A stretch of DNA of 64,000 nt from an uncultured Kordia sp. (GTDB lineage Bacteria; Bacteroidota; Bacteroidia; Flavobacteriales; Flavobacteriaceae), in NCBI GenBank assembly GCA_964351775.1, contig CAYGPQ010000005.1:3640-67639 (forward strand), given 5' to 3'. Each line of letters starts with the position of its first letter. Position 1 is the first letter of the stretch. The position numbers and the translations under genes were made by a program. Of the stretch, positions 17,485-19,632 are shown one piece after another. The notes under the pieces are model-generated. The model ran no database searches. It was not told where the DNA came from and was given only the letters and a program-made list of their open reading frames with translations.

Positions 17485-19083
17485 TTAAAGCCGCATGAAT
17501 TTTTCTAAATTTTTTCCAAGGGTTACCTCGCGAAACTTTTTCGTTTCCTCTGTATTTTGGGTAGTATCATTTTCATTGTAACTGATTGATAATGTATTCA
17601 TTAAATTCAACACAGGGTTCACTTCTAAACTTAGATAACTGTCATTTTGACGATTGTACCGTATACCATTAGGAAACAATAAGTTTTGTAACTTCTGCTT
17701 CACTACGGAGTTTGATAACTCCCACATATTAGGTAAGTTAGCTAATAATCGTATTGAATATTCAACATATAAATCAAACTTAGATTTTTCAATACTGCTA
17801 TTTTGTATTTCCTTTTCTATTGCTTGATATTCTAACTTTAATTTTTCATTATGTTTTTTGTAAAGTTCCATATTTATTTCACCATATACAAAACGCTCCT
17901 CTACTTTTTCAATCTTTTCTTGTAGTGCCTTTAAATTGTACTTCAAATGCTCTGTAACGTCTTTATTTGATTCGTGGTAATAATCAAAAGTATATTTCAT
18001 TTGAAGCTTTAGCGGTGCGATTAGTTTTTCATCAATTTGGAATGCATTTAAAAGGTTTTTAAACTTCTCGTTTAGCTTATCAGCTCTACTGTAACCGCTA
18101 CACCCTTTTGCATTGCATCTGTAATAATTAATCTTATATATCTTCTCTGTATATCCTGTTATTGGTTTTCCGCACGTATCGCATATTACGAATCCTTTCA
18201 TTGATAAGTTTGGGTTGTTCTTTTTATGATTAAAACCCGCACCATTATTCTTTGCATTAATATTATTTACTTTTAAAAACAATTGCTTTGATACAATTGG
18301 CTTGTGATTTCCTTTTACAACCTTGCCATCTAGCAAACTGTTTGATATGAGTCCGCAGTATACAGGATTTTTAAACATGATCGTAAGTCGTGGCGGGTTT
18401 AAATTTACACCATAGTTTTTTAAACGTCTTATAATTTCAACATTCGACAAATTTTCGTTTGCTTTCCACTCAAAAGCTTTGTGTACAAACTTTGCATTTT
18501 CTCCGTGAATCAAAATAGGTCTGTTTTGCGCGTCTCTCGCATTTTTATAACCTATCGGAGCATTACCAATATAGAAACCTTGTAAAAGACGTTGTTTCAT
18601 TCCTGTCTTTGTTTTTTCGGTTCGTTGGTCATTATCGTATTTACTAAATAGTAAGTTCAGATTTTGAAAGAATGTTCCCGTAGATGTTTTGGTGTCCATT
18701 GGTTGGGTTACAGATATTACATTAATACCTTTTGCCTGTAATTTTTCAACCGTAGTAATGGCAGTGGAACCCGCTCGCGAAAAACGGTCAATACTATATA
18801 CAATGATGTTTGATATTTTTTTCTGACCAACATAGGTTAGCATCTTTTGAAATTCCTTTCTATCATCATTTTTGGCACTTTCATTTGTTCCACCAAAATA
18901 GGCACTTATCTGAAACTTGGCACGCTGCGCATATAGTGTGCAATATTCTTTTTGACTTTCAAGACTTGTATTTTCTTTTTGCTTTCCGCTAGAAACTCTA
19001 GTATAGATAACCGCTTTATTATTATTGATAACGGTTTTATTACTTCGCTTTCCGAAGCTTTGAAATTGACTTAAATTGCTCAT
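17485..19083 (-). CDS. Large serine recombinase (resolvase + recombinase + zinc-ribbon domains)
   Basis: YTRVSS catalytic Ser motif, DRFSR, APIGY, NPVYCG, CDTCGKP...YYRC zinc ribbon, coiled coil. Confidence 0.95.
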   Translation of the reverse strand: MSNLSQFQSFGKRSNKTVINNNKAVIYTRVSSGKQKENTSLESQKEYCTLYAQRAKFQISAYFGGTNESAKNDDRKEFQKMLTYVGQKKISNIIVYSIDRFSRAGSTAITTVEKLQAKGINVISVTQPMDTKTSTGTFFQNLNLLFSKYDNDQRTEKTKTGMKQRLLQGFYIGNAPIGYKNARDAQNRPILIHGENAKFVHKAFEWKANENLSNVEIIRRLKNYGVNLNPPRLTIMFKNPVYCGLISNSLLDGKVVKGNHKPIVSKQLFLKVNNINAKNNGAGFNHKKNNPNLSMKGFVICDTCGKPITGYTEKIYKINYYRCNAKGCSGYSRADKLNEKFKNLLNAFQIDEKLIAPLKLQMKYTFDYYHESNKDVTEHLKYNLKALQEKIEKVEERFVYGEINMELYKKHNEKLKLEYQAIEKEIQNSSIEKSKFDLYVEYSIRLLANLPNMWELSNSVVKQKLQNLLFPNGIRYNRQNDSYLSLEVNPVLNLMNTLSISYNENDTTQNTEETKKFREVTLGKNLEKFMRL

Positions 19084-19475
19084 GCTAGGTAACGTTTTGA
19101 TAAATTAATACTAATTACTTTAGGTTGAATAACAGTTATTATTTGAATCCCTAATTTTTCGATTTTTTGTAGTGTAGAAAAGAGGTTTTTTCTCGTAAGG
19201 CAATCATACGTGTAAACTATAATGGCTGATATATGATGCGCTTTTGCATACGCTATCATTTCTTCAATATCTGTTTGTGTTTGTAATCCACTTTTAAGAG
19301 TACCGCCGAAACACTTTTTTACTTCTAGTTTTAGATGTTCGACTTTAAGTAAACAGTGTTGCTTTTGTTGTAAGATTTTGGTATTATCCTTTTGTAACTT
19401 ATTAGCAACTCTGGTGTAGATAATCGCTTTATTACTTCGTTTTACGAAGCTTTGGAATTGACTCAAATTGCTCAT
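19080..19475 (-). CDS. Stand-alone resolvase-type catalytic domain, paralog of the adjacent recombinase, predicted inactive
   Basis: Same MSNLSQFQSF start; YTRVAN replaces YTRVSS and DCLTR replaces DRFSR; stop overlaps the recombinase start by 4 nt. Confidence 0.8.
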   Translation of the reverse strand: MSNLSQFQSFVKRSNKAIIYTRVANKLQKDNTKILQQKQHCLLKVEHLKLEVKKCFGGTLKSGLQTQTDIEEMIAYAKAHHISAIIVYTYDCLTRKNLFSTLQKIEKLGIQIITVIQPKVISINLSKRYLA

Positions 19476-19632
19476 GTTCGGTAATGGTATTATATGTTAA
19501 TAATGATAGTTCTTTTAACGTTTGTATGATTTGTTCAGCTTCTTGATTAGACACATCAGCGAATCCATCGAAGCTTCTTAACTGCTCGATGGTTATCGTT
19601 TTTAATACTGTGTTGTCTTTTACAATCTTCAT
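19432..19632 (-). CDS. Small helical protein upstream of the serine recombinase
   Basis: 66 aa, ITIEQLRSFDGFADVSNQEAEQIIQTLKELS; overlaps the next gene, giving an operon-like arrangement. Confidence 0.7.
   Translation of the reverse strand: MKIVKDNTVLKTITIEQLRSFDGFADVSNQEAEQIIQTLKELSLLTYNTITEHEQFESIPKLRKTK

Follow-up and report, generated by a model that had tools for sequence, protein, structure and literature searches.

A serine-less resolvase core gene under purifying selection between a small helical gene and a large serine integrase of Kordia

The domain layout of large serine integrases is set out in the accessible text of PMC12286644, PMC11722253 and PMC9943657, and helix E of these enzymes is described, in the accessible text of 10.1101/2025.01.03.631226 and PMC11795197, as both a rotation platform and the conformational switch from dimer to tetramer. 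The dead core described here has the fold and motif scaffold of their N-terminal catalytic domain (PF00239; 3bvp, the TP901-1 integrase, and 3guv), from which it differs in being a stand-alone gene without the nucleophile, helix E, DBD1, DBD2 or the coiled coil. The same inactivating Ser-to-Ala change has been engineered in CD1231, where, according to the accessible text of PMC5025042, S10A abolishes the activity of a large serine recombinase; the dead core is by contrast natural, truncated before helix E, about 40% identical and under selection of its own. Recombination directionality factors (RDFs) such as SPbeta SprB, Bxb1 gp47, the phiC31/TG1 family and CD1234 are small modulators encoded by the element, as is proposed here. 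In the accessible text of PMC11795197 known RDFs are 7–28 kDa in size, share no common fold and are modelled at the DBD2/coiled-coil junction; several fall in a 7–9 kDa range that also holds the 66-aa product described below, and none of those treated there is an integrase paralogue, unlike the optional dead core. In the Bacteroidota elements whose large serine integrases target tRNA genes (L004–L017), the 66-aa gene overlaps the integrase start by about 44 nt, an overlap like the one seen here, and the integrase ORF runs into the att junction, as it does in the present element, which differs from them in ending in a dispersed intergenic repeat and not a tRNA, and in the addition of the dead core.

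The stretch of DNA that was analysed (the window, 64,000 nt) has Kordia records, Flavobacteriaceae, as its closest named relatives. On its minus strand a 66-aa gene is followed by a 131-aa serine-less core and then by a 532-aa integrase, with the following features.

19432-19632, minus strand: 66-aa ORF, an acidic, probably helical protein (ORF call; no family known)
19419-19507: first copy of an 89-nt direct repeat, upstream, where the 66-aa gene ends and the dead gene starts; 81% identical to 19027-19115
19080-19475, minus strand: 131-aa ORF, a resolvase core without serine or helix E, the dead paralogue (ORF, Pfam, alignment)
19404-19406, minus strand: Ala24 codon GCT at the nucleophile position of the 131-aa ORF (sequence)
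19027-19115: second copy of the 89-nt repeat, downstream, where the dead gene ends and the integrase begins, at a spacing of 392 nt
17485-19083, minus strand: 532-aa ORF, a large serine recombinase with intact catalytic motifs (Pfam and model)
18991-18993, minus strand: nucleophile Ser codon TCT of the 532-aa integrase (sequence)
17319-17522, minus strand: right-hand part of an intergenic repeat that is dispersed in the host; the integrase ORF runs into it, and a probable att junction, ambiguous in this assembly, lies near 17522

The first two ORFs overlap by 44 nt and the last two by 4 nt (ATGA), and the 131-aa and 532-aa translations both begin with MSNLSQFQSF; the overlapping arrangement and the shared start are as an earlier note on this DNA had described. 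Contigs from three public runs span the cluster with 0 differences (X1, 17491-24938; X2, 17492-21009; X3, 18351-19634), and an assembly artefact is ruled out by these unbroken contigs, which come from one single study and of which X1 is possibly the source of the window itself. The motif TAnnTTTG is a promoter motif of the Bacteroidota; it was not found in 19633-20300, and a promoter scan gave matches at chance level (14, against 15.1 expected).

The 532-aa ORF has the parts of a large serine recombinase: a core with the serine and DRxxR, helix E, a recombinase domain, and a Zn ribbon with coiled coil. The Pfam Resolvase and Recombinase models match above cut-off, while the Zn-ribbon model stays just below (24.8 against a cut-off of 25.3) and the CxxC pairs are visible in the sequence. 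The integrase subclade to which it belongs (window, L001, L003, L007, L044) ends inside the dispersed intergenic repeat, with the junction before CCTTGG; the repeat motif has 3–91 matches per genome in four genomes of the genus and the insertion loci differ from strain to strain, while sister Kordia integrases end at tRNA 3' ends. From these ends, the subclade may be a multi-site integrase whose target has shifted from tRNA to a repeat of the host. A search for the far end of the element did not find it, the lone left repeat halves being repeat variants. Contig C121 of the same genome (G000) ends with an uninterrupted repeat copy identical to window 17468-17522 over 55 nt, and its last gene adjoins a DUF4870 gene in G013 and G010. 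Such a contig end would be explained either by a site left empty in some of the population or by wrong joining of the window's contig at the repeat.

Several other features lie upstream of the cluster. Window 20154-21050 holds non-coding tandem units of about 372 nt, 66–85% alike, with an inverted copy near 21525, and such units are common to other Kordia integrase elements, including the one on G000:C69. Two paralogous genes of no known family (107 and 75 aa; 21596-21919 and 22971-23198) are also found upstream of the integrases in L003 and L004, and at 25105-25147 the tRNA-Met junction sequence known from L011 and L013 recurs in degenerate form. What we take to be a transposase-like fragment lies at 25363-25681 and is present a second time on C18. 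The same genome has at least three more integrase elements of related type (G000:C13, C135, C134 and C69; two are collapsed in the assembly), none of them with a dead core.

The 131-aa ORF matches Pfam Resolvase (PF00239; 34.6 bits, cut-off 23.3) and no other Pfam family, in agreement with the earlier note's view of it as a resolvase fold only, and it aligns with integrase residues 1–128 at 41% identity (E 7e-28). It is not an active recombinase by its motifs, as it lacks the serine of YxRVS, a complete DRxxR, helix E and any DNA-binding domain. The alanine that the note had read at the nucleophile (YTRVA against YTRVS) is there, GCT standing where the integrase has TCT, and the position is Ser in all 66 related integrase cores and A, A, T and A in the four dead copies. 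The second substitution that it had named, DCLTR against DRFSR, is correct for the window copy and is not general, since the Cys (R100C) is found in one copy of four and the first Arg is kept in the other three. In integrase numbering the dead copies have lost S31, S40 and R75 as well as two short segments in loops; they keep Y27, R29, V30, Q35, Q44, D99 and mostly R100 and R103 (R29 in four of four, R100 in three of four, R or K at 103 in four of four). They also have invariant residues specific to their clade, and all four end QPK....NLSK.Y.

Homology between the 131-aa ORF and the integrase stops at Q127-P128, and the 13-residue tail that follows aligns at the DNA level with duplicated upstream sequence. 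Helix E of the integrase is predicted at 134–167 (AlphaFold model from a 91-row alignment, mean pLDDT 84). The note had argued from the role of catalytic domains in the dimer and tetramer interface, an argument that is not supported here, and because the homology ends before the predicted helix E the dead core cannot be an ordinary inactive subunit. A model of the 131-aa protein has resolvase topology at modest confidence (pLDDT 63) and retains the N-terminal helix; its best VIA matches are 3guv (Z 8.7) and 3bvp (Z 8.4), with an Argonaute row scoring level with them. A phmmer search of the homologue P0010 against PDB sequences gave no match.

Searches of 5.8 billion proteins found four dead copies (P0001, P0002, P0003 and P0010), the homologues being 59–69% identical to the window copy; all four are open and all four lack the nucleophile serine, and the 50% library holds two clusters of the dead core. 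The gene is thus neither unique to this strain nor frameshifted in relatives, the outcome that the earlier note had said would count against it. The DNA-level view of the gene comprises two loci, the window and L040 (G014); in L040 the dead gene begins within a 66-aa homologue, as it does in the window, and the contig ends at the last codon of the dead gene. P0010 probably adjoins the integrase P0009. Within the genus the dead gene is found in 2 of 19 genomes and the integrase core in 14 of 19; the gene was absent from 400 other genomes sampled from the family and its clade from 61 metagenome loci. No dead homologue was seen among 232 pattern matches on viral contigs, and the one integrase locus found there (L183) is also without it. 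In L001, whose integrase is 92% identical, and in L003, L002 and L069, the 66-aa gene joins the integrase directly. Contigs of runs X5 and X11 likewise join the two without the dead gene; their 66-aa gene differs at 5 of 216 bases (about 98% identical), and an X5 contig lacks a net 392 nt here, which is the spacing of the 89-nt direct repeat. Recombination between the two repeat copies would add or remove the dead gene cleanly. A deletion-joined form from the window's own strain was not seen, the X1 joint at 19069-19496 matching the letters of a paralogous element.

In order to judge selection on the dead gene, the window copy was compared with that of L040. The NG86 method gave dS 0.59–0.67, dN 0.22–0.23 and omega 0.33–0.40 (95% bootstrap 0.19–0.67), and codon maximum likelihood, over the whole gene and over codons 16-131 outside the overlap, gave omega 0.12–0.21 (likelihood ratio test against omega = 1, p <= 1.4e-6), a range that excludes one unstable fit (F3x4, codons 16-118; t 5.9, omega 0.02). 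Differences by codon position number 30/17/38, and neutral simulations at the observed distance stayed free of stops in 5–10 of 1000 runs. For the integrase fragment of the same genome pair dS is 0.68 and omega 0.07; the dS of the dead gene matches that value, which is consistent with co-inheritance of the two. The omega of the dead gene is about 2–6 times that of the integrase, and it comes from one DNA pair in which the window copy, the most diverged of the four, takes part (R100C, a 7-aa deletion and the longest branch). The signs of a pseudogene, namely stops, frameshifts and an omega near 1, are missing from the 131-aa ORF, and the suggestion of a real pseudo-enzyme-like gene under purifying selection is upheld by four open copies of four and an omega well below 1. 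We regard it as very probable that the 131-aa gene encodes a selected protein.

In a quick tree of the cores only, with 36 of 71 rows, the four dead copies group together as a single clade (SH-aLRT 100), the stem of which measures about 2 changes per site; all trees were quick and had SH-aLRT support only. Recent self-duplication was rejected, as sisterhood of the window copy with its own integrase has a p-AU of 2.7e-66, and the earlier description of the gene as a copy of its own integrase's catalytic domain does not stand in that recent sense. A placement of the dead clade as sister of its own integrase's subclade was not rejected (p-AU 0.47). The dead cores are 38–44% identical to the nearest integrases, and by these comparisons the dead core is an old paralogue and not a fresh self-copy. 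The identity at the start of the 131-aa and 532-aa ORFs is limited to about 14 codons and resembles a patch left by recombination; the N-terminus of the window copy is 94% identical, over aligned positions, to its own integrase type, while those of the other dead copies are closest to other Kordia integrases. We infer a history of old duplication, fast divergence and later constraint, with exchange through recombination at the 5' repeat.

The order of small gene, serine-less core and integrase has, from the sequences compared, arisen independently in two other loci. In L205 (G744, from another Bacteroidota family) a 66-aa-type gene is followed by a 149-aa core, a 70-nt gap and the integrase; this core has Ala at the nucleophile, is 72% identical to its own integrase with differences by codon position of 18/19/64, and ends at the start of helix E, and a joint clade with the Kordia copies was rejected (p-AU 0.008). 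In L119 the integrase comes after a small helical gene and two serine-less cores. L205 was one of 29 non-own loci inspected from a 400-genome search of the phylum, a count that is no unbiased rate because the profile was built from serine-less cores picked by eye. Four more short frames opened from that search were one frameshifted integrase and three ordinary resolvases; they are a subset of a table that also lists other short frames of 246–249 aa. Solo cores beside integrases may also keep the serine, without helix E in L014:5366-5686 (106 aa) and with it in L122:4368-4871 (167 aa), and P0100 is a 330-aa protein of two tandem cores with serine in neither. Since Ser is kept in 98 of 102 further short homologues, many of which come from short contigs and are probably integrase fragments, serine-less cores are a small minority. 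In the literature searched, in which subscription journals are thinly represented, no description of a natural dead resolvase-core partner was found.

The 66-aa gene has a wider distribution. It stands next to nearly all integrases of this family: by a simple rule 49 of 65 distinct integrases have a small ORF directly against their start, a count with at least one false call (L122) and some likely misses, so that the 66-aa type of ORF does accompany its cognate integrase across related elements. Many of these small ORFs align as one family, and a widespread, unnamed family of 50–85-aa helical proteins directly before large serine integrases is seen in Bacteroidota and other taxa (window 19432-19632, L014, L026, L116, L118, L128, L143, L201 and L203). 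The 66-aa protein had no convincing match in Pfam, NCBIfam or PHROG, and in the atlas it fell only into unnamed clusters below 0.9. Its gene has an omega of 0.15–0.28 in three pairs and of 0.03–0.04 in a fourth, saturated pair. Because of this spread and its size, the 66-aa gene fits a directionality or core accessory factor better than the dead copy does, and its product is a candidate for either role and the better RDF candidate of the two.

A possible role for the 131-aa protein is that of an optional accessory brake, which would bind the core/helix-E region of its own integrase and lower recombination; we favour this role tentatively, at slightly below an even chance. A tandem duplication of the integrase 5' end may have left the first copy behind the 66-aa gene, where it would have lost helix E and both DNA-binding domains, diverged fast and then come under constraint, and it would now enter and leave elements by recombination at the shared 5' repeat. 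The gene overlaps would couple synthesis of the dead core to that of the integrase. With its helix-E docking face empty, the dead core could then take up helix E, or else the core, of an intact subunit, which would thereby be kept from reaching the active tetramer, and the integrated state would be stabilised. Another factor would decide in which direction recombination runs, and the 66-aa protein is the most plausible candidate for it. Open frames in all four copies, an omega below 1, one old clade, loss of the nucleophile, patchy presence and independent recurrence in L205 and L119 all fit such a brake. However, the gene is rare, close relatives do without it (L001, L003, L069, X5, X11), its omega comes from a single pair with the most diverged copy and exceeds the integrase's, the solo cores of L014 and L122 keep their serine, and the L205 core is uncoupled from its integrase by the 70-nt gap. 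A dead core without helix E may also be a monomer with no affinity for the integrase; residues 1–105 of gamma-delta are monomeric.

It is less probable, and on the whole unlikely, that the ORF is a translational relay or spacer, its frame maintained so that ribosomes move on from the 66-aa gene to the integrase or so that integrase output is tuned, with its residues constrained for harmless folding. The 44-nt and ATGA overlaps of the window would suit such a relay, an ATGA overlap of the same kind would appear to fit the termini of P0003 and P0010 and the final bases of L040, and conservation in the dead copies follows the fold of the integrase (Mann-Whitney p 0.009; Fisher p 0.08). Nothing would be gained by a pure relay, though, because clean deletion restores the common gene arrangement; moreover the dead gene's omega near 0.2 is that of the 66-aa gene, the dead copies have their clade-specific invariant residues, and the L205 core is not coupled at all.

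The acidic 66-aa protein might instead bind the basic catalytic core, possibly as a helix-E mimic, with the dead core titrating it as a decoy. The two proteins differ in pI (5.7 for the 66-aa protein, 9.9 for the dead core), the N-terminal helix is retained in the dead core, and the serine-less core lies directly behind a 66-aa-type gene in all three lineages that have one, but this position also follows from tandem duplication of the integrase 5' end, and the known RDFs are modelled at DBD2 and the coiled coil, not the core, in the accessible text of PMC11795197. We consider such a decoy decidedly unlikely.

We give little credence to a decaying duplication, that is, a pseudogene in progress with no role, at least in the window's strain. 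The rarity of the gene, an omega higher than the integrase's and the state of the window copy (R100C, the 7-aa deletion, the longest branch) are what decay would produce, yet all four copies are open, omega is far below 1, and neutral drift would leave a stop in at least 99 of 100 simulations. Equally poor in our view, or a shade more so, are the prospects of the dead core as the RDF itself. RDFs lack a common fold and are often scavenged proteins (PMC11795197, accessible text), and the dead core is co-located with its integrase, but it is optional (2 of 19 genus genomes, and near-identical elements without it) and so is not an obligatory directionality factor. It is missing from most related elements with an intact integrase and 66-aa gene, among them L001, L003, L069, X5 and X11, and known RDFs are modelled at DBD2/coiled coil in the same text; the earlier proposal of a directionality factor is thus not supported for the dead core. 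A role on the DNA side, in which the basic core covers att DNA through its phosphate-binding arginines or poisons the integrases of rival related elements in the same genome, is highly improbable, for although R29, R100 and R/K103 are largely kept and several related integrases share one genome, the protein lacks a DNA-binding domain and helix E, has lost R75 and carries R100C in the window's strain.

Control of large serine integrases has so far been understood through the coiled coil and RDFs. If a natural dead core does act on the catalytic/helix-E switch, control would be exerted at another point, and such a core might serve as an off-switch for genome-editing integrases; the three-gene module is small and directly testable in E. 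coli. The 66-aa gene is in addition the pointer to a candidate RDF family, and the integrase subclade of this locus appears to land in multi-copy intergenic repeats. More speculatively, and with considerable doubt on our part, large serine integrases may repeatedly give birth to their own regulators, through duplication of the 5' end behind a widespread small gene of helical type, truncation ahead of helix E and loss of the serine. The resulting pseudo-recombinases would act on the dimer-to-tetramer step, with the 66-aa family as the unrecognised RDF of a large Bacteroidota/CPR-type integrase group. If so, pseudo-recombinases would be a layer of control separate from the known directionality factors.
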